From Octopus vulgaris (Eukaryota): a stretch of 64,000 nt of DNA. The translations under genes were made by a program, and so were the position numbers. The DNA lies in the NCBI GenBank assembly GCA_951406725.2, contig OX597834.1, positions 32,364,001-32,428,000 of the forward strand, written 5' to 3'. Within the stretch, counting starts at the first letter, position 1; each line of letters starts with the position of its first letter. Below the pieces are notes generated by a model. It ran no database searches. It had not been told where the DNA came from and was given only the letters and a program-made list of their open reading frames with translations. Positions 5,187-32,113 of the stretch are shown piece after piece.

Positions 5187-5387
5187 TTAAGTTTTATTGG
5201 CTGGTTTCAAATCGTTCATATCCACTCCCGTCTTATCTTTCAGATGCTGACACAAAGTTGTCAAGCAAAGATCCATAACTAAATCCAGTATGACTTGTTC
5301 TTCAGGTGAAAATTCTTCCTGGAGGTACATTCCAATCTGGTCTTTTGCAGCTGGACGATCAATGCCAATTTTCAGTCTTGTCAATTT
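5187..5387 (-). CDS. PTRH1: Pth/PTRH1-like last coding exon
   Basis: KLTRLKIGIDRPAAKDQIGMYLQEEFSPEEQ...KT* matches Pth RLRxGIGRP...YVLxxFxxxE. Long T-rich acceptor ending ttgtag; phase 0; TAA stop at 5189-5187. Confidence 0.93.
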   Translation of the reverse strand, partial: KLTRLKIGIDRPAAKDQIGMYLQEEFSPEEQVILDLVMDLCLTTLCQHLKDKTGVDMNDLKPANKT

Positions 5388-5431
5388 CTACAAAGAAAGA
5401 AAAAAAAATGAAATAGTAATAATAATAATAA

Positions 5432-5684
5432 TCATCATCATCATCATCATCATTTAGCGTCCGTTTTCCATGCTAGCATGGGTTGGACGGTTCAACTGGG
5501 GTCTGTGAAGCCCGAAGGCTTCATCAGGCCCAGTCAGATCTGGCAGTGTTTCTACAGCTGGATGCCCTTCCTAACACCAACCACTCCGTGAGTGTAGTGG
5601 GTGCTTTTTACGTGCCACCTGCACAGGTGCCAGACGAGGGTGGCAAACGGACACGAACGGATGGTGCTTTTACGTGCCACCGGC

Positions 5685-5685
<1 letters not shown>
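5432..5685 (-). mobile_element. Family-D SINE/retroposon 3' part with (GAT)n tail
   Basis: Near-identical to 7690-7962, 21008-21350 and 27690-27995 (ggatgcccttcctaacgccaaccactcc core). Confidence 0.8.
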
Positions 5686-5717
<32 letters not shown>

Positions 5718-6812
5718 TATAATAATAATTTGTTCATTTATTGGCCACAAGGGCTAACAAAAATCAATTAAAACATAAAGGGACAAAACACAGGACGAAA
5801 GTTACAAAGGGTTTTGTCCGTTTGAAAAAGGTCCGTGTACAAAAGCAGGATGACAATGAAAAATAAGTAACAATTAAAACTCCCAATAGGGGGAGGCGCT
5901 TCGAAAGGTTACTTGTGGAAAAACCCATAAAAGCCACAGGAGCCCGGTCAAAAGGTGGGTAGAGAGCCCCTTTCTCCTTTTATATTTCCTTTTAATAATA
6001 ATAATCTTTTCTGCTATAGGCACAAGCCTGGAATTTGTGGAGAGGGGGATAGTCAATGACACTGACTCCAGTACTTGACTGGTACTTAATTTATTGACCC
6101 TGTAAGGATGAAAGGCAAAGTCGACATCAGCGGAATTTGAACCCAGAACATAAAGATGGTTGAAATGCTGCTAAGCATTTTGCCCCAGCGTGCTATCAAT
6201 TCTGCCAGCTTGTTGCCTTAATAATAACACACACACACACACAGGCGCAAGTGTGGCTTGTAGAGGTAGGTGTGGCAGTGTGGTTAAAAAGTTTGCTTCC
6301 CAACCACAGGTTTTCAGGTTCAGTCCCACCACAGGGCACCCTGGGCAAGTGTCTTCAACTACAGCCCGAGAGTACCAAAGTCTTTTGAGTGGATTTCATA
6401 CAAGTAAACTGGAAGAATGTGAATATATATAATTAATATATATATTTGGAAACAGATGCGTCACGTTCAATTAAATAATAGTAAATAATATATATGTATA
6501 TATATATATATATACATGCATATATAGGTACAGGATGTTACCAACAATGCAAATAACATGAAATATGTAAACAAATGAGTTAAATATGCAAACAACGAGA
6601 AAAAATGGAAAACAGGACAAGTAAACATAGAGAAAGGACCCTTCATCAGTTGTTGGCTGTCTATCTACTCCTCATTTTGAGCATTCAGCGACAATATGAG
6701 TCTTCAAAGACAGTTGCTTGCATAAGTTCTAAAATAAAATTTAGGATTTATGGAGGGTCAAAGCTGGGAGCAAAAACATGACAGTAGACACATATAAGGA
6801 AACCGAACGAAA

Positions 6813-6893
6813 AACAAATATGGAGGGTCACTAGACCAGAACAAATATGGAGGGTCATTGGACCAGAACAAATATGGAGGGTCATTAGACCAG
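6813..6893 (+). repeat. 3 x 27-bp tandem repeat
   Basis: aacaaatatggagggtcaYtRgaccag repeated three times with no spacers. Confidence 0.9.
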
Positions 6894-7175
6894 TCCACTC
6901 AGCTAAAAATGAGTTGCCTTGTGACAGAATGGCCTTCTGATCAGGGTGAATGTTGGCCTGCCAACCCACCCAGCTAGTTGGGTGGCAGTATTCAAAAACT
7001 AAAGCAATGTAAAGTGCAATGTGACCAGTGATGTATAACAACCTTGGATAGTTTGGGGGATACCATGATATATATGATTATGTGTGTGTGTATGTGTGCG
7101 TGGGTGTGTAGAGTGAGAGAGACTGGGAGAGAGGGGATAGGGGCAGTCATTGATAAAGAAAGGTGACCAACCTAC

Positions 7176-7221
7176 CTCAGAGTCCAATGCATCCAACACA
7201 GACTTCACACCACTGTGTCCA
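7176..7221 (-). CDS. PTRH1: Pth/PTRH1-like 46-nt exon
   Basis: (N)GHSGVKSVLDALDSE corresponds to the Pth GHNGxxS motif. Acceptor tttttgcag, donor gtaggt; phase 2 to 0, exactly bridging the neighbouring exons. Confidence 0.9.
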
Positions 7222-7609
7222 CTGCAAAAAACATAACAAATAAATAAATAAAGATTAGTTTAATTACAAAAAGATAATTATCAAACAGACTGCATGCTGG
7301 TGGTGGTGGTGGTGGTGGTGGTGGTGTGTGTTTTTAGGGATTCCATTTAAATCATATCTAAAGATATAATTTCATACGGTTCTTTTATTCTTTTATTTGT
7401 ATCAGTTATCTGACTGTGGCCATGCTGGAGCACCGCCTTTAGTCAAACAAACTGACACCCAGGACTTATTCTTTGTAAGCCTGCTACTTATTCTATTGGT
7501 CGCTTTTGCCAAACTGCTAAGTTACAGGGACATAAACACACCAACATCGGTTGTCAAGCAATGGTGGGTAGGTGGGAGGAACAAACAAACACACACACAC
7601 TAATTCATC

Positions 7610-7962
7610 CATACGTGGCTGATGCCAGCGCTGCCTTGACTGGCTTCCGTGTCGGTGGCACGTAAAAAGCAACGTCCGTACGTGGTCGATGCCAGCGTCA
7701 CCATGACTGGCTTCCGTGCCAGTGGCACATAAAAAGCACCAACCGATTGTGACCATTGCCAGCCTCCCCTGGCACCTGTGCCGGTGGTACGTAAAAAGCA
7801 CCCACTACACTCACTGAGTGGTTGGCGTTAGGAAGGGCATCCAGCTGTAGAAACACTGCCAGATCAGACTGGAGCCTGGTGCAGCCTCCTGGCTTCCCAG
7901 ACCCCGGTCGAACCATCCAATTGATGCTAGCATGGAAAACGGACATTAAACGATGATGATGA
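7610..7962 (+). mobile_element. Family-D SINE/retroposon
   Basis: Reverse complement of 5432-5685, with internal gtggcacgtaaaaagcacc repeats and a (GAT)n tail. Confidence 0.8.
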
Positions 7963-8671
7963 TACATATATATATATATTGGTAGGCCCAGGCGTCTAAG
8001 GTGCCACACAGTGGGATTGAACCCCAAACTACACAGTTGCAAAGTAAGTTTGTTGAAGAGCCTAACAACCGAGCTGTATCTGCTTCCATTAGATATCATC
8101 AAACATCGTTAAATGCCAACCAAAGAATTACTGCATTGACGCAGAAAAGAAACACAACAGAATCAGTTTAAAAGATTATATAAACTGACTTTTTAAAGAG
8201 TATCACATTAAATCAGATTAAAAGATTAAAAGATTAGCCCCTCACACACACACACACACATCTTGCACGTTAGGACAATATATCATCTTGGTATAAGTAC
8301 TAGCGCACCTGATCACACTTACAGACTTTTGATGACCTTTAGACAGACAGACAGAAAGCCAAAAAGATAATTAAAAACACCCCCATACCCCGCCCCCGCC
8401 CAAGCAACCCTTCGTTGCTTTGGTTTTCAGTGATCATCAATTCATACTGCTGTTTTTCATCATCATCATCGTCATCGTCATTGTCACCACCACCACCACC
8501 ACCACCACCATCATCATCGACAGGAAGGACATCTAACCATAGAAAACCTGCCTCAATGAATTCTAGCTGATGTATGCAAGCATGCGTAAATGGATGCTAG
8601 AACAATGATGCTGATGATACATCATCATCATCATCATCAACATCATCATTGTCATCATCATCACTGCTGCT

Positions 8672-9045
8672 GTTGAGCGAATGGTCTTCGTCCCAGAGCT
8701 CGCAAGATGGGTGAAGTCCGAAAAGTGGTCCTTTGCTATTCGTAAGACCTGCAGAAGAGAAAGCAGGTCAACCCCTGACACCGAGAGCATCGACGGATGG
8801 ATGAATGTGCATCCAAACTCAGCAGTAGTGTAGGAAGTCGGGGACAGGAAACAGGAAGAAAGAGTGAGAGAAAGTTGGGGCGAAAGAGTACAACAGGGGT
8901 CGCCACCCCCACCCCCCTGCCGGAGCCTCATGGAGCTTTAGGTGTTTTCGCTCAATAAACACACACAATGCCCAGTCTGGGAATCGAAACCGCGATCTTC
9001 CGACCGCGAGTCTGCTGCCCTAACCATTGGGTCATTGTGCCTCCA
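8672..9045 (-). mobile_element. Family-C tRNA-derived SINE
   Basis: Head gtggaggcacaatgacccaatggttagggcagcagactcgcggtc...ggtttcgattccc (A/B boxes); inverted near-copy at 9676-10040. Confidence 0.85.
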
Positions 9046-9212
9046 CTGCTGCTGCTGCTGCTGTTTGCCTCCTGTTTGGCATGCAGGTATAGGATGAACG
9101 ATTTGACAGGCGTTGCTGAGTCAGAGGACCGCACCAAGCCCCAGCTGTCTGCTTCGGCACGGTTTCTGAAGCTGGATGTCCTTCCTAGTGTCAACCGCTC
9201 TACAGAATGTAC

Positions 9213-9442
9213 CTATTTCTTTACTACCCACAAAAGGGCTAAACATAGAGGGGACAAACAAAGACAGACATAAGTATTAAGTCGATTGCATCGACCCCGG
9301 TGCATAACTGGTACTTAATTTATCGACCCCGAAAGGATGAAAGGCAAAGTCGACCTTGGCGGAATTTGAACTCACAACGTAACGCAGACGAAATACCGCA
9401 AAGCATTTCGCCCGACGTGCTAACGTTTCTGCCAGCTCGCCG
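9213..9442 (-). mobile_element. Family-B SINE, full length
   Basis: Head gcggcgagctggcagaaacgttagcacg, B-box-like gagttcaaattcc, and tail aaagaaatagg. Confidence 0.85.
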
Positions 9443-9675
9443 CATACAGAAAGAATTAGGAGAAGGGAAGGATAAAGAGAAAGAGGGGTAGAGGGGGAAT
9501 ATGAAGGTGAAAGAGAGAGGAGGACAGAGGGAAAAGAAAGAGAGAAGAGACAAAGATAGAAAGAGAGTGGACAGAGAGAGAGAGAGAGAGAAAGAGAGAA
9601 AGAGAGAGGAAAAGAGAGAAGGAAGAGAGAGAGAGAGAGAGAGAGATGTTGGATAAATGTGATCAACAACAGCAG

Positions 9676-10040
9676 GAGGTGCAATGACCCAGTGGTTAGG
9701 GCAGTGGACTCGCGGTTTCAATTCCCAGACCGGGCGTTGTGTGTGTTTAGTGAGCGAAAACACCTAAAGCTCCACGAGGCTCCAGCAGGGGGTGGTGGCA
9801 ACCCCTGTTGTACTCTTTCACCCCAACTTTCTCTCACTCTTTCTTCCTGTTTCTTATCCCCGACTTCCTACGCAACCGCTGAGCCTGGATGTGCATTCAT
9901 CCATCCGTCGATGCTCTCGGTGTCGGGGGGGTTGACCTGCTTTCTCTTCTGCGGGTCTTACGAATAGCAAAGGACCACGTTTCGGACTTCTCCCATCTTG
10001 CGAGCTCTGGGACGAAGACCGTTCGCCCAACAAACAAACA
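9676..10040 (+). mobile_element. Family-C tRNA-derived SINE
   Basis: Inverted copy of 8672-9045; ends in (AAAC)n. Confidence 0.85.
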
Positions 10041-10088
10041 AACAAATAGCAACAACAACAACAGATGTTCCATTAGTCGTAAACTTAC

Positions 10089-10188
10089 TTGGCTGAGCCT
10101 CCATTCTTCAAAGCAATCTTCCCCATTCTGCGACCAATGTCATCATGAATGAGGTAGACATTCTCTGGGGGGACATCGAAATGACGAG
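10089..10188 (-). CDS. PTRH1: Pth/PTRH1-like internal exon
   Basis: (A)RHFDVPPENVYLIHDDIGRRMGKIALKNGGSA matches the Pth HD(E/D)LD...GGSA motif. Acceptor ctctttcag, donor gtaagt; 100 nt, phase 1 to 2. Absent from the ORF track in this frame. Confidence 0.93.
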
Positions 10189-10317
10189 CTGAAAGAGACA
10201 ATCAGTGAGAGAGGTCAAGTGGTGGTGGTGGTGGTGGTGGTGGAAGTGGTGGAGGCAGGTGTAGGAGGGTATTGTCTGAAGGAGAATGTCTGCATGTGTG
10301 TATGGATGTGTATGTAT

Positions 10318-10545
10318 CGAGCTGGCAGAAACGTTAGCACGCCGGGCGAAATGCTTAGCGGTATTTCGTCTGCCGTTACGTTGTGAGTTCAAATTCCGCC
10401 AAGGTCGACTTTGCCTTTCATCCTTTCGGGGTCGATAAATTAAGTACCAGTTACGCACTGGGGTCGATGTAATCAACTTAATACCTATGTCTGTCCTTGT
10501 TTGTCCCCTCTGTGTTTAGCCCCTTGTGGGTAATAAAGAAATAGG
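10318..10545 (+). mobile_element. Family-B SINE
   Basis: Near-identical to 12322-12550 and to the reverse complement of 9213-9442. Confidence 0.85.
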
Positions 10546-10575
10546 TATGTGTCTGGAGAGAGAAAGAGAGAGAGA

Positions 10576-10610
<35 letters not shown>

Positions 10611-10663
10611 AAAGAGAGTGAGAGACAATCTTTAGAAATTGTGGTCAAAAGAGATCTCCTTAC

Positions 10664-10880
10664 CTGCTTTTGAAACACTGGTTCCATTTACCATCATTGG
10701 AATCTGTGGTTTCAGGAGAATAAGGCTGACATCGTCGAGTTTACTCACAGCAACATGTCCTGCCACGGTTTCTTTGTCGTCTTTCCACTGTAGTTTCAGC
10801 TCATCAGCCAAGCAGTCAAGAAGCTGCAGACCGACACTGTGTCTGGTCAATGACAGTTTATCATGGCCGAGACCAACGAT
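10664..10880 (-). CDS. PTRH1: Peptidyl-tRNA hydrolase (Pth/PTRH1-like), first identified coding exon
   Basis: Translates IVGLGHDKLSLTRHSVGLQLLDCLA...LILLKPQIPMMVNGTSVSKA, matching the Pth motifs VGLGN, TRHxVG and LLKPxxxMNxxG. Acceptor ttcag at 10881-85, donor gtaag after 10664; 217 nt, phase 0 to 1. Confidence 0.93.
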
Positions 10881-11400
10881 CTGAAATTCAAGAAGAAACA
10901 TTGTGAGTATAACACAAATGATGTTGCGGTTTTAGGTTGGCATTTAAAATGGATTTTGATGAAGAGAGGATTCAGTAGTTAACTGGAAATAATTACAGGG
11001 TAAGATGGATAGATGGATGGCTTTGTGGACGGATAGATAGACAGACTGACAAACAGATGAATAGTGAGATAAATAGAGGGATATGCATATATATATATGC
11101 ATAAATCCATATATATATATATGCTCTCAAATCCAAATCAAAAGAAATCTTTGAGCTGACGAAGGAAATGTTGATCTTTATAGTCAACTAATCCAGAAAC
11201 GGCCGTTCTCAAGTAATCTTATGTACGTGTGATCTTTCGTTATTTTTTCCTCTATACCTGTGTGAATTATTTTTGAGTATGCATTGTCTGGGAGATTTTT
11301 CTTATAGTAGAAGAAATAGCTAAGATTTTTTGGCTGCTATTTCTAAAAGTTCGGTGTGTGGTAAAGTAAATTATTTTACTGAACCCTAATTATATAACGT

Positions 11401-11488
<88 letters not shown>

Positions 11489-12321
11489 ATATATGAAACT
11501 GATAGAATAAGTACCATGCTTTTAATAAAAATAGGCACTGGTGTTGATTTGTTTAACTAAAATTCCAACATGGCCACAGATGGATAGGTAGATAGGAAGA
11601 CAAGGATATATATATATCCTTTCTGTTGAAGAGTATAGGCTCAAAACGTAAAAGACTTTCTCACCTTCTCAAGTGTTAAACTAATACACCTGCTTGTTGT
11701 TTATACACCTGTCTTCGTCTTTTGTTTTTCTGTAAATTTCAATTATATATATAAATATATATATTTCATTCTTTTACTTGTTTCAGTCATTTGACTGTGG
11801 CCAAGCTGGAGCACCGCCTAAAGTCAAACAAATTGACCCAAGGACTTATTCTTTGTTAGAAAAAAAAGTACTTATTCTATCGGTCTTTTTTGCTGAACCG
11901 CTAAGTTACAGGGACGTAAACACACCAGCATCAGTTGTCAAGCAATGTTGGGGGGGACAAACACACACACACACACATATACGACAGGCTTCTTTCAGTT
12001 TCCGTCTACCAAATCCACTCACAAGGCTTTAATTGACCCAAGGCTATAGTAGAATATTTTGAGTCATATTTTCCATGGCTTCATACTCTTGGCTGTTGCC
12101 AACCCTCATCAATTTCCAAACAAGTGAAAATTTCATCATGGCCAGACATGTTTGTAAAGAATATTGGAAATAAATGACACTGCTTGTATGACGGTGACAA
12201 TCATTTACAACTATCACACAATGTCAAGATAAGGACACACCAACTCATGCACAGACACAAACATACATGCACACACATACACATACATTATGCATCCATA
12301 CATACATATACACACATAAAA

Positions 12322-12550
12322 GGCGGCGAGCTGCCCGAAACGTTAGCACGTCGGGCGAAATACGTAGCGGTATTTCGTCTGCCATTACGTTGTGAGTTCA
12401 AATTCCGCCGAGGTCGACTTTGCCTTTCATCCTTTCGGGGTCGATAAATTAAGTACCAGTTATGCACTGGGGTCGATGTAATCGATTTAATCCCTTTGTC
12501 TGTCCTTGTTTGTCCCCTCCATGTTTAGCCCCTTGTGGGTTATAAAGAAA
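12322..12550 (+). mobile_element. Family-B SINE
   Basis: Full-length copy beginning ggcggcgagctgcccgaaacgttagc. Confidence 0.85.
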
Positions 12551-12701
12551 TATATACACACATAAGTAAGCCCTTAAATGCAAAACAAGGTGGTAAAAAT
12601 CGTACTTAAATACCAAAGGCAAATCTGATTGATTGATTGATTCTAGTTTCAGCTCACGAGCTGTGGCCATGCTGGGGCACCGCCATTATAAAATCTAGTG
12701 C

Positions 12702-12773
12702 CTCCCCGGCGGGGAATCGAACCCCGGTCTCCCGCGTGACAGGCGGGGATACTTACCACTATACTACCGAGGA
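12702..12773 (-). tRNA. trnD-GTC: tRNA-Asp (GTC)
   Basis: 72 nt TCCTCGGTAGTATAGTGGTAAGTATCCCCGCCTGTCACGCGGGAGACCGGGGTTCGATTCCCCGCCGGGGAG. Intact cloverleaf, A and B boxes, GTC anticodon, and a TTTT Pol III terminator about 9 nt downstream. Confidence 0.96.
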
Positions 12774-13154
12774 TATTTATTAAAGCTGAAAAAAATCTTC
12801 ACAAACTGTAACTCAAGAGTTTTATATTACCGTTCGTCAGACAGGTGAGATAAACTGAAAATTTGTTCAGCTTCAATAAATAATATATAACTGTATGTGT
12901 GTGAGTGTGTAAGCGTGTGTGTGTGTGTGTATTACACGGTCACCAATTTTTTTTCCTTCTTTTTCTTTTTTTTTTTGACGTTAAAAACTGGTTATAACAG
13001 TAATCTACACCATCTGAAAGGTATTCATCAAGAAATACCTATTTTACTGAAAGTTATGAGGAAACGTGATTGGGTGAGGGTGGTGGAGAGAGAGAGGAGG
13101 CACAGTTCTGTTATGGCCAAAGAGATTATCAACTGTTTCTAGGACAGTGACCAT

Positions 13155-14110
13155 ATATGCTTGTATGTATGTATGTATGTATGTATGTATGTCTGTGTGT
13201 GTATGTATATATGCATGTATGTATGTATGTATGTATGTTTGTATGTATGTATGCCTGTATGTATGTATGTATGTATGTATGAGTGTATGTATGTCTGTGT
13301 GTGTATGTATGTATGTATGTATGTATGTATGTATGTTTGTATGTATGTATGCCTGTATGTATGTATGTATGTATGTATGTATGTTTGTATGTATGTATGC
13401 CTGTATGTATGTATGTATGTATGTATGTATGTATGTATGTATGTCTGTGTGTGTGTGTATGTGTGTATGTATGTATGCCTGTATGTATGTATGCCTGTAT
13501 GTATGTATGTATGTATGTATGTATGTATGTATGTATGTATGTATGCTTGTATGTATGTATGTATGTATGTATGTATGTCTCTGTGTGTGTGTGTATGTGT
13601 GTATGTATGTATGCCTCTATGTATGTATGCCTGTATGTATGTATGCCTGTATGTATGTATGTATGCATGTAAGTATGTATGTATGTATGTATGTCTGTGT
13701 GTGTGCGCGTGTGTATGTATGTATGTATGTATGTATGTACGCCTGTATGTATGTATGTATGTATGTATGTATGCATGCATGCATGTATGTATGTATGTAT
13801 GTATGTATGTATGTTTGTGTGTATGTATGTATGTATGTATGTATGTATGTATGTATGTTTGTGTGTATGTATGTATGTATGTATGTATGTATGTCTGTGT
13901 GTGTGCGCGTGTGTATGTATGTATGTATGTATGTACGCCTGTATGTATGTATGTATGTATGCATGCATGCATGCATGCATGTATGTATGTATGTATGTAT
14001 GTATGTATGCTTGTATGTATGCTTGTATGTATGTATGTATGTTTGTATGTATGTATGTATGCATGCATGCATGCATGCATGTGTGTGTGTGTGTATGTAT
14101 GTATGTATGG
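13155..14110. repeat. ~950-bp compound (TATG)n microsatellite
   Basis: TATG runs punctuated by recurring cctg, tttg, tctgtgtg and catg variants. Source of many spurious ORFs. Confidence 0.97.
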
Positions 14111-14430
14111 ATGGATGCATAATTTTGAGAAGGTCCGATTCCTTCTCATACATTGAAACACAGTAATGGAAAATTAAAATAGCGACAACATCAGTGAAGA
14201 ATCCTTGAGAATTTAAAATCAATCCGTCATTGAAAAGGAGGAGGCGCCTGATAATGTATTTCATGATTTATTTCATAAATACTACACGTAACCCTACCCC
14301 GGCCTCACACCCACACACGGAGTGAGGGCGCGTGGCCTAGTGGTTAAGGTGTTGCACACGCAATCGCAGGATCGCGGTTTCGATTTCCATATCGAGCGGA
14401 CCGTTGTGTTCTTGAGCAAAGCACTTTTTT

Positions 14431-14854
14431 GGCGATCTTTCGTCTCTAGTAGACCTTTCCGTCGATTTCCGTAAAAATTTTTTTTTTTTTTTACATAAGG
14501 GCTTGCAGGAACTTTTGAAGTAATATACATACATATACACATACACCGAGTAAAAAATTTCAGATATCTCTCTCTTTCACACATTACTCTGTCTCTTCAC
14601 ACACACTAACAGAAGCACTTCACTTACACAACATACTGTCTGTCTCCCACACCCCATCAAACACACACACACACACATGTCCATCAATGCTTCCCATGCA
14701 CGGTAACTTCAAAAGAACTTCCCTCGTCATACAATCGCTTTCTCTTTGTCTCTTTCGCTCTCATTACTTCAAAAGTTCCCGCAAGCCCATATGTAAAAAA
14801 AAAAAAATTTTTACGGAAATCGACGGAAAGGTCTACTAGAGACGAAAGATTGCC
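14431..14854. mobile_element. MITE with ~93-bp TIRs and 8-bp TSD, nested in a SINE
   Basis: TIR GGCGATCTTTCGTCTCTAGTAGACC... / ...GGTCTACTAGAGACGAAAGATTGCC. ACTTTTTT is duplicated at 14423-14430 and 14855-14862. The host SINE starts near 14325 and resumes after 14862. Confidence 0.9.
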
Positions 14855-15301
14855 ACTTTTTTTTACGTTGTTCCGCGATCACTTCGACACCTAACTTGTG
14901 CCTCACCGTTCATTTGTACTGACAATATCCGTTTGATGGAGCAAGTGAACTAGTGTTCAGCGCATACATTTCATCGCTAAAAGCAAATCATTTATGCAGG
15001 CTGTTTACAGGTCGTCATCATCGTCGTCTAACGACAGAAGAGTCCCTATGTACATACATACATACATACATATATATAATACACAATATAAATGGCTGCG
15101 TACACACGTCCATACGTCCACACACACATACACACACAGATATGTCTGTATAAGGAAGAATGCAGCAAAACAATGAGTCATTTTCACGAACTCACGCGTG
15201 TATTTGTATTGTATGTGTATAAATTATGAAGCCACGCACAGAACACAGGACACAGTGGTTGGTTCACAAGGAACAGCGCACACAAATGTATAAGCGCGCC
15301 T

Positions 15302-15332
<31 letters not shown>

Positions 15333-15790
15333 ATGTATGTATGTATGTATGTATGTATGTATGTGTGTGTGTGTGTGTGTATGTATGTGTGTATGTATGT
15401 ATGTGTGTGTGTATGTATATATGTATGTATGTTGTATGTATGTATCTATGTATGTATGTATGTATGTATGTGTGTATGTATATATGTATGTGTGTGTGTA
15501 TGTATGTATGCATGTATGCATGTATGTATGTATGTATGTTTGTGTGTATGTATATATGTATGTATGTATGTATGTATGTGTGTATGTATATATGTATGTA
15601 TGTATGTATGTGTGTATGTATATATGTATGTGTGTATGTAGGTATGTATGTAGGTAGGTAGGTACGTACGTATGTCTACACGCATGTATGAAACCATGTT
15701 TATAACATGTAGGAACGTATGTATGTGTATGCATGCATGCATGCACGTATGTACATATGCATGCATTCACATGTGTATGCATGTGTATAA
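15302..15790. repeat. Compound (TATG)n/(TG)n microsatellite
   Basis: Directly visible. Confidence 0.95.
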
Positions 15791-16204
15791 TGCAGGTATG
15801 CTCCATATACGCGCATGAGAGAGAGAGAGAGAGTGTGTGTGTGTGTGTATGTGAAAGAGAGAGAGAGAGAGAGAGAGAGAGAAAATATGGGTCACTTCAC
15901 GAAGAACACACCCACACACAAATGTCTACATATGTATGTGTTTATATAATATATATATCGAGCAACACATACATACACACTTGTATTGTTTATTATACGT
16001 GCATGAATGAATGATTCTACAACCAAGCATCGACAGCATCTAACACGAGGCGGTCCTCTAACTCTAACGCACGTAGGTACACGTATATCCACCCCATCTA
16101 CAACGGGGTGTGTCACAGAGGAGATTGACTTTTTTCCAAGACTACAGCATTCTCAATTGTCACTTCTAAAAGTGCACGGAATCTTTTCCTAGACGTACCC
16201 CTCC

Positions 16205-17000
16205 CCTTCTCTCTCTCTCTCTCACTCTTTCTGCCTAGGTCTCTGTAACCCTCTCGCTAATTCTCTCCTCCACTTCCTCCTACTTCACCGGTTCTTCCAC
16301 TTTTATGTTCCCCTCCTCTCCTTCCAATCTCTCTCGTGTTTTTGCTTTTAACCCTCCGTCCTTCTATACACACTCTTTCTTTCTCTCTCTCTCTCTCCCT
16401 TACTCTTTCTGCCTAGGTCTCTGTAACCCTCTCGCTAATTCTCTCCTCCACTTCCTCTTACTTAACCGGTTCTTCCACTTTCATGTCCTCCTCCTCTCCT
16501 TCCAATCTCTCTAGTGTTTTTGCTTTTAACCCTCCGTCCTTCTATACACACTTTCTTTCTCTCTCTCTCTCTCTCTTCTCTTTCCTGTCTATTCATCCTA
16601 CCCCCCTCACCAATTCTCTCCTCCGCTTCCTCATACCAAACTTCTATCGTCTGCCTCTATCGATTTACTTTCACTTCCTCCTACTTCGCCGTTTCGCTAC
16701 TTTCTTTCTCCCTGAATTCCTCCCCTTCCTATCTCCCTCTCAACCTTATAGTCTTCTTGCTTTTAACCCCCCCCCCCCACTATTTTCTCTTCCCTTTCTC
16801 ACTTTCTCCCCTTTTCTCACTCTCACTAATCTTCTTGCTTTCATATTTCCCTCTTCCCACTACTTACTATCTTTCTCGCCCCCCCGCCACTATTTTCTCT
16901 TCCCTTTCTCACTTTCTCCCCTTTTCTCACTCTCACTAATCTTCTTGCTTTCATATTTCCCTCTTACCACTACTTACTATATCTCTCTCTCTCTCTCTCT
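16205..17000 (+). repeat. Pyrimidine-rich region with local tandem duplications (~180 bp x2-3; ~110 bp x2)
   Basis: actctttctgcctaggtctctgtaacc... at about 16224 and 16402; ccactattttctcttccctttctcactttc... at about 16777 and 16887. Confidence 0.85.
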
Positions 17001-17348
17001 CTCGACCCCCTCCGCCTCTCTCTCACAGCTTACATTGCACACAGGTCGTTGCCCGGTTCCTGACGTAAAAGTGGCCATGCATGCATACACATGCATATCA
17101 CAACACAGATGCATGATGGAAATAAACCCAAGCTAAGGCCAGAACAATAACACTAGATTTAAAACATGGTAGGAATAAAAATAACAAACCCCAACTGTCG
17201 AAATACCTAATATATTACTTCTGTTCTACTCGATACTGGATTCCTTTCCTAGTTTCCAGTCATTGAACTTGCGGCCTTGCAGGAGCAGTGTCTTTTTCTT
17301 TTTTCTTTCTTTTCCTACTGTAGGCACAAGGCCTGGAATTTTGGGGAA

Positions 17349-17530
17349 ATGGGCTAAGCTGCCGGACGAGATAGTGAAGATGCCGACGACGGCTCGGTTC
17401 AAAGTCTTCCTTGACCACAAATGGCCTGAACTCTTTGCATTAACACCACCCTGTACATAACTCCATGTCCCCCTACATGGCCTTGCTTTTTGCTTTTTGA
17501 GCCAAAAAATTAACTTAACTTAACTCAACT
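17349..17530 (+). mobile_element. 3' end of a CR1/L2-type LINE
   Basis: WAKLPDEIVKMPTTARFKVFLDHKW resembles the CR1/L2 ORF2 C-terminus (WNxLPxxVVxAxxxxxFKxxLD); short 3'UTR and (AACTT)n tail. It interrupts a degenerate family-B SINE. Confidence 0.75.
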
Positions 17531-18029
17531 TATATCGATTACAATGTTCAACTTGTACTTTATTTTATCGATTCTGAAAGGACGAAGGGTAGAGTCGACC
17601 TCGGCGGAATTTGAACTCAGAATGTAAAGAGCCGGAGGAAAAGCTGCTAACTAGCTTGTCCGACGCTTTGTCAGTTCGCCGACTTGCACTGTCTTAAAGA
17701 GTTTTTAATTGCTATCAGCAACCCCTCAGCTTCTTTTACTGAAACTCTATTGAATCAACTGAGTCACTCAGCCGAAAGTGAGTAGAGTACCAGCTGAGTG
17801 TCGATGCATCTCTCTCTCTCTCTTCAACAGTGACATCCCGAGTGAACAGGATGGAAGGCCGAGAAAGCGCCCATTCTTGCTTGCGACTACAAAGGCACTA
17901 AAAGCTTAACGTATAAACACTGTCGATGGATGAATTACTTCAGTATTTGATCTGAGGTAGCATTTCTTATGGACTTACTGTGTTAAAAACGATAAATATA
18001 AGAGAGAGAGAGCTGAAAATTTATCCTTG

Positions 18030-18165
18030 CAATGGCCAGCGTGATCGCCAAACGCATTGCAGCTATACTGGACTTTTCCAATGGTGCCTACTCGCAACCA
18101 GCCGCATACTCGGACACCAAGCCATATTCCTTCACGGGGAAGAAGGCTGGATCTCATTTATGAAA
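18030..18165 (+). mobile_element. Possible decayed LTR-retrotransposon RT fragment
   Basis: AILDFSNGAYSQ...DTKPYSF loosely resembles the gypsy RT motif LDLxxAYxQ. Weak. Confidence 0.25.
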
Positions 18166-18487
18166 ACTACTAAATTACGGGAGACAAAGGAACACAACAT
18201 CAACAAACCCGATGCTAAACATAGTTAGGTGTCCACTCTAGTGGTCATTCCTCTTAATTTTGTGTGCAGCACAATTTTTTATCTTCAGATTTTTTTTTTA
18301 AATATGCTTAGCCACTGGTTTTAATTGATTAATATCAATTTCTACCCTTATTATTATGAACGGCAACGGGAAACTCAGAGTAACAGGTTTTGTTGAATTT
18401 TCTGCTGCTTTAAATAAAGCATATTACTCTACCACTGGTATTTGAGTACTCTTTTTCCACCTTGTTTCACATTTATGTGTTTACTCC

Positions 18488-18540
<53 letters not shown>

Positions 18541-18547
<7 letters not shown>

Positions 18548-18659
18548 TCCTGAAAACGGATAAGTACCATTAATTTATTAACTGCAAAAATTCAACATGT
18601 TGAATTTTTGCAGTTAATAAATTATATGAATGCTACTTCTCCATTTTCCGGACTTTGAT
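18541..18659. repeat. Fold-back with a perfect 54-bp palindromic core (18571-18624)
   Basis: taatttattaactgcaaaaattcaaca|tgttgaatttttgcagttaataaatta, plus imperfect outer arms. Confidence 0.92.
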
Positions 18660-19384
18660 TTGAATATTTATAAACCAAGATTTATATTTAAACCTATCGT
18701 TTTAGGAATATTACTATTCACAACAAAATAATAGTTAACAAACCAGTAATTCATTGGATATCTTCTATCCCTTAAGGCGGTTATTTTAACCTCTATTTAA
18801 ATTGTGTGTGTGTGTATACTTCCAGACTATTGCATGCAATGTGTATAGTGCAACGAAATACAAAATATATATTTAAAAAATACATATAAAATCGCTGCTT
18901 GCTGCCAAGACTGCAAAACAAAAATCTAATTTTACAAAATACATTCAAAGAAACTGGGATAAAAGTGGGAGGGTGGGGGAGCAGAGAAAAACTGTAAGAA
19001 AATCGATATAAATAAATATAGAGAAATGACTGAATAGGTCGCCGGTTTACAGTTTCAAGAGTTTATCGACTGTCATCAGAGACAAAAAGCAAAAAGAAAA
19101 AAAAAAGCGTTAACTGTTTTTAATTATTTATTATTACTTTTGTTGTTATTTTCTTGTTAATCGAGTATTTGCAATGTCCTAAACTTTTTTTTTCTTCTTC
19201 TTTCTTTGGCCCTTCTGGTCAATAAAGAAAGTAAGGTGGCGATGCTAGCAGAATTGTTAGTGGATCGGATAAAATCGTATATTTTGGATCGTGTTCTGCT
19301 TGTTACTATGGAAACAGGTGTGAATATGTCTGTGGCTTACGATTGGTTATCAAATTCACTCATAAGGCATTGGTCAGCCCGGAG

Positions 19385-19908
19385 ACGAAATTTTTTTCCC
19401 TTAAGAGTTCCAGACTCCAGTAATTAACTCATTTGCATACAGCCAATCAGAACAGAGCCACCTTTATCCTTTCTTCCTTTCTCGTCAGCACCGTGCATTC
19501 CTTACTCTTTCCCTCTCTACTGGCAGACAGCAACTTTTCCGTCCTCTAACTACATGGCCGGCAAACTAATAAATATATGTAAATAATATTTCTTTCTTTT
19601 TGGTGTTAATCCTTCAATGTTTACTGGTTACACCGACGTTGGTACAATAATACACTTACCCAAACTGAATTGCTGGAGTATTTAATTTTTTCCAGAAAAG
19701 AGTACATTAAAGATTCGTAGTGATAGCAAAATGTTTTTTCGACAGTGACAAAAAGGCTGTTGTCTGCCAGTAGAGAGGGAAAGAATAAGGAATGCACGGT
19801 GCTGACTAGAAACGAAGAAAGGATAAAAGGTGGCTCTGCTCTGATTGGTTGTATGCAAATGAGTTCCTTAACTGGGGTCTGGAACTCTCGTAGGAAAAAC
19901 AATTTCGG
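19385..19908. mobile_element. MITE with ~160-bp TIRs inserted in a family-A SINE
   Basis: 19385-19545 is the reverse complement of 19745-19908. SINE sequence (aaggcattggtcagccc / tagaagacacttgcccaagg) is split on either side. Confidence 0.8.
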
Positions 19909-20358
19909 GGATCGGGGCAAATGGTAGAAGACACTTGCCCAAGGTGCCATGTAATAGAACTGAACTGGAAACCACATGGTAGCAAAATGAACTTTTTTAG
20001 CCACACAGCTATGAGTTTTTACCATCGAGGCCCATCCACGCCATGAAAATCAAACAATTTTAGTCGTCATCGTCCTGGCAACATATGAAAACAATTGCAA
20101 CTGATCTCTGCTACAGCGTGTGTAACTTTTATGTCGGACAATATCTTTCTTAAATTATAATTAGGTATTCGTTTCGAAAATAATCCGGTCTGCTGGTTTA
20201 TAATTAGCAAATGAAAAAAATCAAACAGCACTTACAATAATTGTTTTCGTTTGGGTCGGGGTATGTAATATATGGGGATGGGTAAGCTGTTGCACTTTTC
20301 ATCGACAATTCCACAGTGACGGATTCTGGAGAACCTCTGTGTGTGTGTGTGTGTGTAT

Positions 20359-20395
<37 letters not shown>

Positions 20396-21007
20396 AATAC
20401 AAAATGGGACAAGAGCGCAAAACATCCAGACAGTTAGGTGATACAAATAAGGGACAACAAAACATCCAGATAGATGATACAAAGAAAACAAGGACGGGTC
20501 TTTCGGAGTTTTCTTTCCTCAGTCGAGTTCCAGATTATCTTTGCAATTTCGGCTGGTTATACTTTGCAATATTTCAGGATTAAATAAAAAGACAACGGAA
20601 AATATGACATATCTGTGTATGTACATACATACATATACATACATACATACATATATATATACATATAGTTTTTAAAAAAAACATCTCATAAATACACAAA
20701 CGAACATATACTAAATACACAGACGAACAGAAAACGCAGAAGGTCACCAACTCCTTTTCAGTTATTGGCCAGAGGGTTAAAGCACAATTTCATATATATC
20801 TATATATGTATATATACAAGGCGGGCACCTTTCAGTTTCCATATACCAAATCCACTCACAAGGTTTTGGTTGACCTGAGGCTATAGAAGACACTTGCCTA
20901 ATGTGCCACGCAGTAGGACTGAACCCGGAACCATGTAGTAAGGAAGCAAGCTTCTTACCACACAGCCATGCCTGTACGTAAATATGTAATAATTACATGC
21001 GCGTGTA

Positions 21008-21350
21008 CATCATCATCATCATCATCATCATCGTTTAACGTCTGTTTTCCATGCTGAGATGGGTTGGATGGTTCAACTGGGGTCTGGGAAGCCAGTAGGC
21101 TGCGCCAGGCCCAGTCTGATCTGGCAATGTTTCTACGGCTGGATGCCCTTCCTAACGCCAACCACTCCGTGAGTGTGGTGGATGCTTTTTACGTGCCACC
21201 TGCACAGGTGCCAGACGAGGCTGGCAACGGCCACAATCGGATGGTGCTTTTTACGTGCCACCGGCACGGAGGCCAGTTGGGGTGGCGCTGGCAACGGCCA
21301 CGTTCAGATGGTTCTCTTACATGCCACCGGCACTGGTATCACAGCTACAA
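21008..21350 (-). mobile_element. Family-D SINE/retroposon
   Basis: Homologous to 5432-5685 and 27690-27995. Confidence 0.8.
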
Positions 21351-21982
21351 TTTACGTAACCATAAAAACAGGTTTGGTCTGTTTTCTTCTCGTCTCATTT
21401 GTTCTGCTACCTGCCTACCATACACAGCAGTAAATCGAATTCTTTGATACACAGTATTCGAATTTTAATGGCTGGTGTAGGAGAGAAGACCGACTGCCTA
21501 TCGAGAACCGCAGTATTCGAATACACAGTAATTGGACTTCGCCTCTGGGTGTGTGCACGCGTATGAGAGAGATAGAGATAAAGAGAGTGTGTGTGAAGGT
21601 GTGTGTGGTGTAATGGTTAGGATGTTGAGTTTGCGATCGATAGGTCATGAGTACGATTCTCGGATTGGATAGTGCTTTGTATTGTGGCTACAATACAAAA
21701 TACTATCCAGCCTGAGTGAACAAGTATAGTCTCACGTGATTGGTCTATGAATTGGCCAATCAGCGTGAGGCTGTGACGTGATAAGGTTTTCTCGATTATT
21801 CTAGACTACAACCTCTTGTCCCGTATAAAAAACTGCTTTGGTAAATCAACTCATCGCAGACTGATGAAGGCAACTGAATGAATTGCGTCTCCACTCTTGC
21901 CATGCAGACGGTTCTGGACATTTATGTAGACAACTCCAGGTTCTCAGACACCCATTCTGAACATTCATACAAAATCTTATTA

Positions 21983-22370
21983 GGAGTGGCTGTGTGGTAA
22001 GTAGCTTGTTTACCAACCACATGGTTCCGGGTTCAGTCCCACTGCATGGCATCTTGGGTAAGTGTCTTCTACTATAGCCTCAGGCCGACCAAAGCCTTGT
22101 GAGTGGATTTGGTGGACGGAAACTGAAAGAAGCCCATCGTATATATGTATATGTGTGTGTGCGTGTATGTTTGTGTTTATCCCCCTAGCATTGCTTGACA
22201 ACCGATGCTGGTGTGTTTATGTCCCCGTAACTTAGCGGTTCGGCAAAAGAAACCGATAGAATAAGTACTAGGCTTACAAAGAATAAGTCCCGGGGTCGAT
22301 TTGCTCGACTAAAGGCGGTGCTCCAGCATGGCTACAGTCAAATGACTGAAACAAGTAAAAGAGAGTAAAG
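21983..22370 (+). mobile_element. Family-A tRNA-derived SINE
   Basis: Head ggagtggctgtgtggtaagtagcttg...gggttcagtcccac, internal (TA/TG)n, tail gaaacaagtaaaagag. Confidence 0.88.
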
Positions 22371-23676
22371 ATCATGCACGGTGTATTTTTCTTTCTTTTC
22401 TTTTCTCTATCTCAGTTGGCAATTGTAAATAATCAACACCAAATATGCCCAAGGTGCCACGCAGTGGGACTGAACCCGGAACCATGTGGTTGGTTAGCAA
22501 GCTACTTACCACACAGCCACTCCTGCGCCTAAAAAAAAAATTTAAACGTCACATGTGCCAAGCTGTATCGGCCATTGCCTTTCCCTTGGATAACACAGGT
22601 GGCATGGAGAGGGGAGGCCGGTATGCATGGGTGATTGTTGGTCTTCCATAAACAACCTTGCCCGGACTTGTGCCTAGGAGGGTAACTTTCTAGGTGCAAT
22701 CCCATGGTCTGTGTCGTGACCGAAGGGGGTCTCAGAACTTGTAACAAATACTATTATAATAACGTAGATTTTATAATTGGTATGGGTAGGGCGCATTGTT
22801 GCGGCTTACCCCAGGCATAATTTATCGTAGCTTTACCACTGCTGAATTCAAACATTGCTGGGGTCAAATATTTTGGCCTTCGTCTTCCTGGGACTCAATA
22901 AAATATAACAACACCTCATTTGATACAATGCTATATGATATTACGGCAAATGTTTGGTGTGAGGAAGTGGTGAGAGTCCATTCAGGAAATGGCTGGTAAT
23001 ATTTTAACAGTAAAGAGAAGTGGAAGGGATACAAATACTTCCTTGCATAAACGTCAGAAAACTAATTCCTGCAACGCATATTTAGAGGAAGCAATCCAAT
23101 AGATAATTATTGCCTCGATTGGCACAGAGCCACGAAACATTTTGGGAAGAAGATGAAAATGATAAATGAAAAATAAGCAGAGAACGAAAGAAATCAGCGT
23201 TGGATTATTGAACGTAAAATGCTTTGCGATATTTGTTCCAAGTTTTTTTTTATGGTTTGAGTTTGGACCCTGCCGAGGTCAACTTGATCGTTTAACCTTT
23301 CATGGGAAAGATAAGATAAAGTGCAAGTGGTCTGGTTATTTATAATCCAGCCAGAAACCAGTGGAAACATGTGCAAAGAGACTGCGATCAGACCGCATCC
23401 AAAGAGATGCTAATCTACATCAGAGGGGATATCACAAAACCCCTTATGCTTGAGAAGGGGTGTGGCTTAGTCGCTGGATTATGCGGCTCACAATCATATG
23501 GCTGTGAGTTCGATTCCCAGTGATATGTTGTGTCCTTGAGCAAGATACTTTATTTCTCATTGCTCCAGTTCACCCAGCTGGCAAAATTCATTGTACCAGT
23601 AATTGAAAGGGGACAGCCTTGTCACATTCTGTGTCACCCTGAATCTGCCTGAAAAGTACGTTAAGTGTACGTGTGT

Positions 23677-23824
23677 GGCGCAGGAGTGGCTGTGTGGTAA
23701 GTAGCTTGTTTACCAACCACATGGTTCCGGGTTCAGTCCCACAGCGTGGCACCTTGGGCAAGTTTCTTCTACTATAGCCTTGTGAGTGGATTTGGTAGAC
23801 GGAAACTGAAAGAAGCCCGTCGTA

Positions 23825-23874
<50 letters not shown>

Positions 23875-24100
23875 TGTGTGTGTTTGTGTGTCTGTGTTTG
23901 ACCCCCTAGCATTGCTTGACAACCGATGCTGGTGTGTTTATGTCCCCGTTACTTAGCGGTTCGGCAAAAGAGACCGATAGGATAAGTACTGGGCTTACAA
24001 AAGAATAAGTCCCGGGGTCGAGTTGCTCGATTAAAGGCGGTGCTCCAGCATGGCCGCAGTCAAATGACTGAAACAAGTAAAAGAGTAAAAGAGTAAAAAG
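23677..24100 (+). mobile_element. Family-A SINE nested in an older SINE (~23455-24212)
   Basis: The host element is interrupted at tacgtgtgt|...|gtgtctgtgaaatactcagccac; the uninterrupted junction is seen at about 41290-41320. Confidence 0.85.
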
Positions 24101-24592
24101 AGAGAGTGTCTGTGAAATACTCAGCCACTTGCATGTTAATTTCATGAGCAGGCTGTTCCGTTGATTGAATCAACTTGAGTACTGATCGCCGTAAACAACG
24201 GAATGCCAGTCGTTAAGAGTCTTATCAGAAGCAACCATTATTAGACTTTCTGGCTGGATTTGCAAATGGGTGGAATTCTGGTTGAAGCAATCCTTGCATA
24301 TTTGTGTTCTACACATGGGAATTCATTCAATGATGCCAAAATTAAATTTCGTGTGTGTGCGTGTGTGATTTAAGGGGGATTAAGCTGTTGTTTTTAGCAC
24401 ATCTCACGACCACATGATACCTTCCTCATTTCTTTGTCATTTTGACATCTATTGATGTTTTTCAGTATTTTTCTCCCCAGAAACACATTTAATAGAATGA
24501 TGCTGTGTTTTAAGCCCCAAATTTTGAACTGTCTACATTTTAAACACTGATTTAAAAGAAAAATTGAAAATGAGTAGAAGCTTTAGGATCTA

Positions 24593-24969
24593 CACTACCG
24601 TCAGAAATTAATTAGCACCCTTGATTTGCTCTTCACTCAAGGTATGTGCTGTCACCTAGTGGCCATATCTCGAACTATTGCTTTGTTGCGAGTTCACTGT
24701 TGCGCAGAACGATGACGTAACTTTGTTTGCAGAGCAGTTTGAGAGTCTACAGCCTTATGATGTTGACATAGCAGTGCAACAACTTGGAGTGCGGATGCAG
24801 ACAAATCTTCCTTTGTTTAATAGATATAGGTAGCGCCTCGCAAGGACCGAAATCACACCATACTAAGTTTTCTCATCGCGTAAGACGTTTTGAACAGCTC
24901 ATAGGTTAATTGATTTAACCTATTTAATGTAGAAATTTGAGAAGTGCTAATTAATTTCTGACGCAAGTG
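24593..24969. mobile_element. Tc1/mariner-type MITE, ~26-bp TIRs, TA TSD
   Basis: ta|CACTACCGTCAGAAATTAATTAGCAC ... GTGCTAATTAATTTCTGACGCAAGTG|ta. Confidence 0.85.
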
Positions 24970-26007
24970 TATGTGGAGGAGGAGAATTTGAATTTTTAAA
25001 ATTTCTTTTCATAATTGAATGTAGAACACAAATTTACAAACATCTGAAAATTCCAAAAACTAAAAAAAAAAAATGTCATGACAGGTTACAAGGGGAGCTT
25101 AAACCAGAATTCCGTCCCCCAAGTCAAACTTACTAAAACTGGATATTATCCAACCATCTTATTCTTGGTCAAGGGCTGGAGAGCTTTAATCAACAGGTTT
25201 GCTCTATTGCTCTATTGGGTGATGTACAAGCAGAAACTATAGACCCACAGAAAAGTTCCAGTGGTATTTAATTAAGACCCCTTTAAAGTCTCAGTCCAGA
25301 TGCTGCCAAGCTTGAGTTTGCCTTTTATCTCTCCAGGGGCCAAAACAAAAAAAAATGAAATACCCCTCAAATACTGAAGTCGATTTTAATATCAATATTC
25401 CTATAATGCAGTCGAGAAGTGAATGGAATTTTAGAGTCAACTAAGACGCACGGACAAACAATAACAACAACAGCAACAACAACAGCACAGCAGAAGCATT
25501 GCTGGAAACTGTTGACTCCTGGCGGGAATTTGAAGCTCAGAATACAACACAAAGAAATGTAATCAAATACCACTTGGCATTTGTTTAAGCGCTCAACCGA
25601 TTCTGCCCTTCCATTATCAGTTACCACTTTGCTTGCAATACCATAAATATTAAATACAAAAACAACAACGGTATTTATATAGGAATGCAGCAGCAAAGAC
25701 TGCCAAGCTCCTTAGTTGAGTGTGTGTGTGTGTGTGTATGATGTAATGTTTATCAGAGATCACGAGCGTAAAAGTACGTCTGTACAAGACTAAGTAAAGC
25801 AAGAGTGAATCAGTGACTGTTGAATTATAAATATAAAACTGTACAGAATATATTAAATGCCCATTGCTTTTGTTTGTATGCAGAGATGTTCGCATGTGTA
25901 TGTGTACATAGATATACATATACATATACAAACATACATATACTCATACATATATCTACACAGCCTTGGGTTTTTTTTATCTCATTACGAAAAAAAATTA
26001 TATATAT

Positions 26008-26420
26008 AGGCGCAGGAGTGGCTGTGTGGTAAGTTGTTTGCTTACCAACCACATGGTTCTGGGTTCAGTCCCATTGCGTGGCATATTGGGCAAGTGTCTT
26101 CTGCTATAGCCCCGGGCCGACCAATGCCTTGTGAGTGGATTTGGTAGACGGAAACTGAAAGAAGCCCATCGTATATATGTATATATATGTATATGTGTGT
26201 GTGTGCGTCTGTGTTTGTGTTTGTCCCCCTAGCATTGCTTGACAACCGATGCTGGTGTGTTTACGTCCCCGTCACTTAGCGGTTCGGCAAAAGAGACCGA
26301 TAGAATAAGTACTGAGCTTACAAAGAATAAGTCTTGGGGTTGATTTGCTCAACTAAAGGTGGTGCTCCAGCATGGCCGCAGTCAAATGACTCAAACAAGT
26401 AAAAGGAAAAAGAAAAAGAA
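26008..26420 (+). mobile_element. Family-A SINE
   Basis: Full-length copy starting ggcgcaggagtggctgtgtgg. Confidence 0.88.
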
Positions 26421-27689
26421 ATATACATACAAATATATATGCCAATACATATATACGTGTGTATAAATAAATATAAGATCCAAGGATCACGGTGTAGGAT
26501 GAAAGTTAGCTTCAAGCAATCTGAAGTGAATATTAAACAAAAAAAAACAACTTTCAGGGAGAATAGTGGTTTATTGAAATGGAAGGTTTTGGATATTTTT
26601 CTTATTAAAGTATGATAAATTGAAAAAAAGTTCTCATTATATTTCACAGCAGGTATGTGAATAAGAATACAAGAATTAAGGAATGGAGTAAGAAAGATCC
26701 AGGTTACATATGCTTCATAGCGAACAGAACCTGAGAAGTGGTAAATAGCCAAGCAAGGTGTACACTGCAGGCTACTCTTCAGGCCAAGGACATCTTGATA
26801 GAAAGCGCCATTTTCTATAGCCTTGGGTCAGCCCCAAACCTCGTGAGTGAAATTGAGTAGATCAGAGCTATAAAGTAGTCCTACTGGATAGATTGTATCT
26901 GTAATTGAAACGGATATTACAGCCTTGTCACAGTCACTGAGTCATGCTATTTGTGCCTTAGAATCATAAAAGGTGTAAATGTGTCAGTAGAATGCTTGGC
27001 TGCTTAGATTGTGATTCAGGAACAGATAACTCAGTTGATTGGACACCTGAATCCTTGTGGTCACATGATGGAGATCCACCTTACACATACATATACAACA
27101 TAACACAAACACACACTTACATACATGCATACATACATATATTGGATTTTTATATTCAGCAACTTTATTTGCTAAACTGTGAGTCATATATTGTCCGTCA
27201 TTTGTCACTTGTACCAGTTGCATAAATGCTTGAAGCTTACTAGCTTCCTACACTTGGACCCCTGGATCATACTTATCTATTACTATGTATGTATAAATAT
27301 AGGCACAGGTGTGGCTGTGTGGTAAGAAGCTTGCTTTCCAACCACATGGTTCAGGGTTCAATTCCCACTGTTTGGCATCTTGGGCAAGTGTCTTCTACTA
27401 TAGCCCCAGGCCTTGTGAGTTGATTCAGTAGAAGGAAACTGAAAGAAGCCTGTCTGATGTGAGCGTGATTTTTTGACACTTCACTATCACTTGACGACTG
27501 GTGTTCATGTGTTTATATCCCTGTAACTTAGCAGTCAGCAAAAGTGATTGATAGAATAAGTACTAGACTTTCCCAAAATAAGTATAGGGGTGAGGCAGGC
27601 ATTTAACTGAAAGTCTACAAGGCATTGCCCCAGTCTAATGACTGAAACAAAACATAAAACATAAGATATATATAAGTATACATACATAC

Positions 27690-28666: not shown

Positions 28667-28715
<49 letters not shown>

Positions 28716-30579: not shown

Positions 30580-30656
<77 letters not shown>

Positions 30657-30838: not shown

Positions 30839-30880
<42 letters not shown>

Positions 30881-31023: not shown

Positions 31024-31107
<84 letters not shown>

Positions 31108-31787: not shown

Positions 31788-32113
<326 letters not shown>

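Follow-up and report, generated by a model that had tools for sequence, protein, structure and literature searches.

The question raised by this 64,000-nucleotide window of the Octopus vulgaris genome (assembly GCA_951406725.2, contig OX597834.1, positions 32,364,001 to 32,428,000, i.e. the whole stretch of DNA that was analysed) is whether the PTRH1-like gene on its minus strand still specifies a working peptidyl-tRNA hydrolase (Pth). The initial annotation described an intact gene in which N10, N68, D96 and N114 of Escherichia coli Pth are replaced by H, M, G and S, respectively. The present analysis suggests that the gene represents a coleoid-wide PTRH1 pseudo-enzyme, which has probably been retained to bind RNA (tRNA, peptidyl-tRNA or another RNA) in mitochondria without catalysing hydrolysis, in a manner similar to the plant protein CRS2; this reading is based on sequence comparison, a predicted structure and analogy.

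The four exons initially described were confirmed to possess canonical AG/GT ends and to be spliced in frame into 187 amino acids (aa) followed by a stop codon. Although the open reading frame (ORF) is indeed intact, these exons do not constitute the whole gene, as an upstream ATG-containing exon had been missed (Table 1). The resulting five-exon product of 234 aa is identical to O. vulgaris CAI9738483.1 (entry P0036) and differs by one residue from O. sinensis XP_029649272.1, both of which are annotated as 'probable peptidyl-tRNA hydrolase'. The first 30 residues, encoded by exon 1, include five K/R and no D/E residues, with an amphipathic segment at residues 12–22, an N-terminal composition that likely represents a mitochondrial presequence.

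By profile, fold and phylogeny, the octopus gene is an animal PTRH1 orthologue and a member of the Pth1 family. The deduced protein scores 114 bits against TIGR00447 (cut-off 100), with the profile covering the whole domain. Its AlphaFold2 model exhibited a mean predicted local distance difference test (pLDDT) score of 85.9, with values of at least 90 for 174 of the 234 residues and a low-confidence N-terminus, and was matched by Foldseek (E=7.5e-21) with template modelling (TM) scores, by target length, of 0.90 to 2z2j and 0.89 to maize CRS2 (1ryb). The model thus confidently predicts that the Pth α/β fold is preserved, in agreement with the fold initially assigned. In FastTree phylogenies (with local supports), the coleoid PTRH1 clade (support 1.0) was nested within the mollusc PTRH1 group (0.958), and the octopus protein, which shares 50% domain identity with chiton and bivalve proteins, also displays the N-terminal extension and the RHSVG and xNG motifs of animal PTRH1. 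With the E. coli and Thermus Pth1 enzymes (PF01195, TIGR00447; PDB 2PTH, 8X5T), it shares the fold, the H20–D93 pair, H113, K105 and K142, yet differs by N10H, N68M, D96G, N114S, V149L and L150Q. An ESM Atlas search returned ordinary PF01195 clusters alone, and a scan of metagenome contigs with cephalopod entry P0004 revealed no relative among 111 pattern matches.

The motifs (GLGH, PMMVNG, HDDIG and GHSG) and codons on which the loss of active-site residues had been proposed were re-read as described, and the four substitutions are shared with Argonauta. In the alignment with E. coli K-12 Pth, the base H20 and its partner D93 are present as H61 and D135, while the oxyanion hole residues N68 and N114 (the latter R/K in some Pths) correspond to M110 and S156, the peptide-binding N10 to H53, D96 to G138, and the lid residues V149 and L150 to L190 and Q191. 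Two features that define an active Pth1, the oxyanion hole and the peptide-binding asparagine, are thus lacking, while the base and its Asp partner are present. A register in which octopus N112 would represent N68 was ruled out, as other animals possess both N110 and N112. Rescue by adenosine-to-inosine (A-to-I) editing can be dismissed, as initially argued: A-to-G changes in CAT, ATG or AGT never yield AAT or AAC, and GGT contains no A.

According to the accessible text of PMC11994314, the oxyanion is held by N68 and N114 and the peptide carbonyl by N10, and D93, E94 and D96 form the acidic pocket for A76. That of PMC5238795 describes Pth as essential in E. coli and reports that N10, N68, N114 and D93 mutants display a ~100-fold reduction in kcat at a similar Km, that H20 mutants are inactive, although H20N retains substrate binding, and that N10 distinguishes peptidyl- from aminoacyl-tRNA. 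Because of these roles in bacterial Pth, octopus PTRH1 would be devoid of both oxyanion donors and of the peptide anchor, and the effects of losing several catalytic residues would be expected to multiply. Regarding the tRNA clamp (K103, K105, R133 and K142 in E. coli; PMC5238795), K105 and K142 are kept (K147 and K183), R133 is replaced by K174, and K103 by Ala at a position that is non-basic in other animals as well. All seven coleoid sequences compared retain K105, K142, a basic residue (K) at R133 and an acidic residue (D) at E94.

To place these substitutions, homologues were collected from 1.84 billion representatives in three word-index searches and a single profile search, yielding 285 proteins. 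Following removal of three sequences of less than 100 aa, 282 were scored: 267 from outside the cephalopods and 15 cephalopod entries, several of which are near-duplicates. Since the sample represents the top of rankings by a mollusc profile (the best 120 of 330 and 150 of 683 under 1e-30), degenerate or distant Pth1 homologues are under-counted. Among the non-cephalopod homologues, position N10 is occupied by N in all 255 proteins with a residue there, H20 by H in 257/259, D93 by D in 266/267, and N68 by N in 266/267 and by M in none (0/267). N114 is represented by N (231), K (24) or R (5) in 260 of 265 proteins and by H, T or S in five. The octopus substitutions are thus not common elsewhere, and other animals were shown to keep N10, N68 and N114 (or K), whereas the coleoid protein does not. 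The Lys found at N114 in Mytilus (P0013) and Nematostella (P0057) is basic, as in some thermophilic bacterial Pths. The presumed conservation of D96 was only partly upheld: D is present in 91% of 35 other animal PTRH1 sequences, but in 152/267 non-cephalopod homologues, and D96G was consequently rejected as a strong marker.

Within the cephalopods, N68M was observed in 15/15 entries, in all of which the D96 equivalent is G or A. At the V149 and L150 lid positions, the 35 other animal sequences show no variation wherever the residue is present, whereas 7/7 coleoids have L and Q/K/N, respectively. N10H and N114S are restricted to octopods, having been found in octopus and in both Argonauta PTRH1 copies, whereas the Sepia pharaonis cluster keeps N10, H20 and N114. 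H20 is kept in 12/15 entries; the remaining three (P0004, P0005 and P0038), which are decapodiform-like, derive from two sources and group with the Sepia cluster, carry H20N while keeping N10 and N114. The domains of P0004 and P0005 are 87–93% identical to that of the Sepia-cluster protein, and the grouping support of 0.81 for the H20N entries leaves one or two origins. The two copies in Argonauta hians (P0003 and P0037), each listed on a contig of identical length, share 94% domain identity and both exhibit the octopod substitutions. The notion of a coordinated remodelling in a single gene was therefore not sustained: as N68M and the lid changes occur in all coleoids sampled, N10H/N114S in octopods only, and H20N in some decapodiform-like entries, the loss is instead stepwise and coleoid-wide. 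The coleoid stem is long (0.595, support 1.0) relative to the inner branches (0.009–0.209), and 25 positions are fixed in all seven coleoid sequences for residues that are rare in other animals. This stem could in fact be that of the cephalopods, no Nautilus sequence having been identified in the sample.

The remainder of the protein is well conserved. Domain identity between the octopus protein and the two Argonauta copies amounts to 91% and 89%, compared with 48% for the presequence, and to 72–75% for decapodiform-type proteins, compared with 29% for the presequence. For comparison, bivalve pairs share 43–64% domain identity, and rodent and goby 59%. Moreover, the seven coleoids show no variation at 109 of the 169 domain positions, and all full-length cephalopod entries have an intact ORF, suggesting that the coleoid domain is still under constraint and is not decaying as a pseudogene. 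Among 39 positions that are at least 90% conserved in the 35 other animals, octopus has changed 6/11 in the cleft and 2/28 elsewhere (Fisher p=0.003).

Searches of the 2.8-Gb octopus genome with the PF01195 profile and with a canonical chiton PTRH1 query each identified the PTRH1 locus as the only match; as these proceeded exon by exon and only the best candidates were scored, they provide lower bounds on copy number. Within these bounds a canonical paralogue was not found, nor was a canonical PTRH1 encountered within the cephalopod clade in the homologue searches or FastTree trees.

Table 1. Coordinates of the octopus PTRH1 gene and of its active-site codons (positions within the window)
Feature	Position	Strand	Description
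Coding exon 1	56102..56242	minus	ATG, residues 1-47; tblastn and exact peptide match; GT donor
Intron 1	10881..56101	minus	length 45,221 nt
Coding exon 2	10664..10880	minus	bears N10H, H20 and N68M; alone passes PF01195 cut-off, E=5e-8
N10H codon	10865-10863	minus	CAT, exon 2
H20 (kept) codon	10841-10839	minus	CAC, exon 2
N68M codon	10694-10692	minus	ATG, exon 2
Coding exon 3	10089..10188	minus	bears D93, D96G and K105 equivalent
D93 (kept) codon	10144-10142	minus	GAT, exon 3
D96G codon	10135-10133	minus	GGT, exon 3
Coding exon 4	7176..7221	minus	bears H113 (kept) and N114S
N114S codon	7214-7212	minus	AGT, exon 4
Coding exon 5 to stop	5187..5387	minus	bears R133 and K142 equivalents, V149L and L150Q
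V149L lid codon	5324-5322	minus	exon 5
L150Q lid codon	5321-5319	minus	exon 5

In one contig from each of two sequencing runs (two studies), the match to exon 5 ends exactly at 5387, with other letters beyond, which hints at a spliced PTRH1 transcript; the RNA type of these runs was guessed, and the region compared with four runs (5000–9500) is swamped by repeats. The exon 4–5 joint was not seen in contigs among the matches listed (best 15 of 1,399). One of these contigs, from the run of a second organism, exhibits a single difference in exon 5, which is synonymous. For decapodiform-type proteins, whole ORFs were found on contigs of 0.9–4.3 kb, with one protein represented on 42 contigs, and such short contigs suggest spliced transcripts. 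The O. bimaculoides gene model (P0035), at 154 aa, extends no further than the region of exon 3, and entry P0001 is without 19 residues across exon 4, reflecting gene-model errors or alternative splicing. Intron 1 also harbours a tRNA-Asp(GTC) gene on the same (minus) strand as PTRH1 (12773-12702). Approximately 1.6 kb upstream of the PTRH1 ATG, a tandem array (57835-60118) repeats a 135-bp unit 16.7 times (94% matches) and includes two frames without stops, of 228 and 230 aa, and a second tandem with a 184-bp unit starts at 61627.

The probable course of events is that N68M, D96G/A and the changes in the lid became fixed along the coleoid stem, which would have removed most of the chemistry and left the remaining catalytic residues free to vary, as N10H and N114S in octopods and H20N in some decapodiforms. 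Selection would then maintain the rest of PTRH1 as a binding protein or scaffold without catalysis. As the predicted fold and the basic residues on the tRNA side are kept and the three asparagines are lost, octopus PTRH1 would still associate with peptidyl-tRNA or another RNA, probably within mitochondria, but with little or no cleavage. GGQ release factors, PTRH2, ANKZF1 and perhaps a protein resembling CCDC25 would probably take care of peptide release; the octopus genome was found to contain a PTH2-family gene, two exons with a release-factor GGQ motif, a Vms1/ANKZF1 domain, and an NFACT-R domain belonging to either CCDC25 or NEMF. The initial proposal of altered specificity or a non-catalytic role, putatively in tRNA binding or ribosome rescue, is supported as to a pseudo-enzyme or repurposed protein by the rarity of the substitutions in other animals, the failure of the genome searches to find a canonical paralogue and the conservation of the domain, with the H20N relatives favouring the non-catalytic option over altered specificity.

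In the accessible text of the literature, deletion of pth1 in Schizosaccharomyces pombe was without a respiratory phenotype (PMC3919214), no contribution of budding yeast Pth1 to the handling of cytoplasmic substrates could be observed, and mammalian PTRH1 is presented as a mitochondrial protein whose function in vivo is still to be settled (both bioRxiv 10.1101/2025.09.04.673968). Reviews credit Ptrh1 with nascent-chain release (PMC7026593, PMC6514570, PMC13628044), the first two citing Kuroha 2018 for the in vitro activity of the human protein, and in one study human PTRH1 reportedly binds RNA and controls the stability of PD-L1 mRNA (PMC10337161).

Several observations weigh against the reading of a non-catalytic RNA binder. 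The enrichment of changes in the cleft is partly circular, falling to 2/7 versus 2/28 when the four sites that prompted the analysis are left out, and it is not significant in the Sepia cluster (p=0.08). The H20–D93 pair is still present in octopods and in the Sepia cluster, which may therefore retain some activity. Hydrogen bonds can be donated by His as well as by Ser, and N114 is replaced by K in the Mytilus and Nematostella proteins. D96G/A and V149L modify the pocket for A76, so that the binding of tRNA may also differ. Active Thermus Pth has Arg at the N114 position (R or K), and the L138A mutation in its lid leaves 55% of kcat/Km (PMC11994314), so that the change at L150, to which L138 appears to correspond, proves little. 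The kinetic data, furthermore, are all from bacterial enzymes and from Ala or Asp mutants, not His, Met or Ser.

One alternative is a slow but still needed hydrolase, in which the H20–D93 pair works and His53, Ser156, Asn112 or Gln191 partly replace the asparagines. Such an enzyme is consistent with the TIGR00447 score given above, with the retention of H20 and D93 in octopods and the Sepia cluster, and with the tolerance of other donors at N114 in nature (PMC11994314), but we regard it as rather unlikely: Met is not able to replace the N68 amide, H20 has been lost in close relatives with conservation undiminished, N112 is the ancestral animal residue and not a new compensation, and residue 191 varies (Q/K/N) among coleoids. 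A remodelled enzyme acting on another substrate, e.g. aminoacyl-tRNA, fMet-tRNA or a non-tRNA ester, would fit the discriminating role of N10 (PMC5238795), the 25 coleoid-fixed positions and the long stem branch. It would, however, be expected to hold its base and pocket constant, yet the H20, N10 and N114 sites vary between coleoid groups, making this explanation improbable.

The protein might instead be dispensable, decaying slowly under relaxed selection and heading to loss, as Pth1 was non-essential in the fission and budding yeast tests (PMC3919214; bioRxiv 10.1101/2025.09.04.673968) and degenerate PTRH1s have arisen in abalones and a shark too. The intact cephalopod ORFs, the large invariant fraction of a domain far more conserved than its presequence, and the synonymous nature of the sole exon 5 difference in the second organism's run render this distinctly improbable. 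It is hardly credible that the locus is an artefact of assembly or annotation, or a side paralogue of a canonical copy located elsewhere: although genome searches of the kind performed could miss a copy, the same residues occur in records of independent origin from O. sinensis, O. vulgaris and Argonauta (and in O. bimaculoides for the first three sites), the canonical chiton query matches the PTRH1 locus alone, and no canonical PTRH1 appeared in the cephalopod clade in the homologue searches and tree, by which this explanation is largely refuted.

Departures at H20 among the non-cephalopod homologues were confined to two proteins, from Haliotis asinina and the shark Heptranchias perlo, which in the FastTree phylogeny lie on long branches apart from the coleoids. 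The H. asinina protein (P0194) carries H20Y, D93A, N114S and L150W, all shared with H. rubra (P0286), to which it is 92% identical; in these abalone proteins the basic tRNA clamp is lost, the tRNA face is acidic and the tail is rich in R/D/N/W. The H. perlo protein (P0225), on a long branch among vertebrates, carries H20C, N68K, D96H and N114T. Loss of catalytic residues in PTRH1 is thus recurrent, albeit rare, a pattern that would agree with a second function as well as with dispensability.

By analogy, maize CRS2 (PDB 1RYB), a Pth-derived organellar protein described as an RNA-splicing factor without hydrolase activity in the accessible text of PMC10226603 and PMC9275481, may be the best precedent for how octopus PTRH1 works. 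CRS2 is nevertheless a chloroplast group II intron factor with CAF1/CAF2 partners, whereas the octopus gene groups with animal PTRH1. CRS2 is, moreover, a paralogue beside active Pths and keeps the main catalytic residues, in contrast with octopus PTRH1, the only Pth1 found in its genome, in which the catalytic residues themselves are changed. The engineered E. coli H20N mutant, which binds without cutting (PMC5238795), corresponds to the natural substitution in P0004, P0005 and P0038; it is a single mutant, whereas octopus keeps H20 and loses the asparagines. A literature search, with subscription papers and supplements outside its reach, found no account of Pth or PTRH1 in cephalopods or as a pseudoenzyme, and coleoid PTRH1 is apparently an undescribed, though real and lineage-wide, variant of a known protein.

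The name 'probable peptidyl-tRNA hydrolase' is probably wrong for the cephalopod proteins. More tentatively, coleoids may have turned their sole Pth1 into a non-catalytic mitochondrial RNA-binding factor, i.e. an animal counterpart of CRS2, with abalones and at least one shark doing so independently; animal PTRH1 would in that case possess a conserved second function that persists after catalysis is lost. The octopod, cuttlefish-type, H20N-type, abalone and shark PTRH1s represent natural variants for a direct test. If cephalopods keep PTRH1 under constraint but without its chemistry, its cutting and in vivo roles would be separable.

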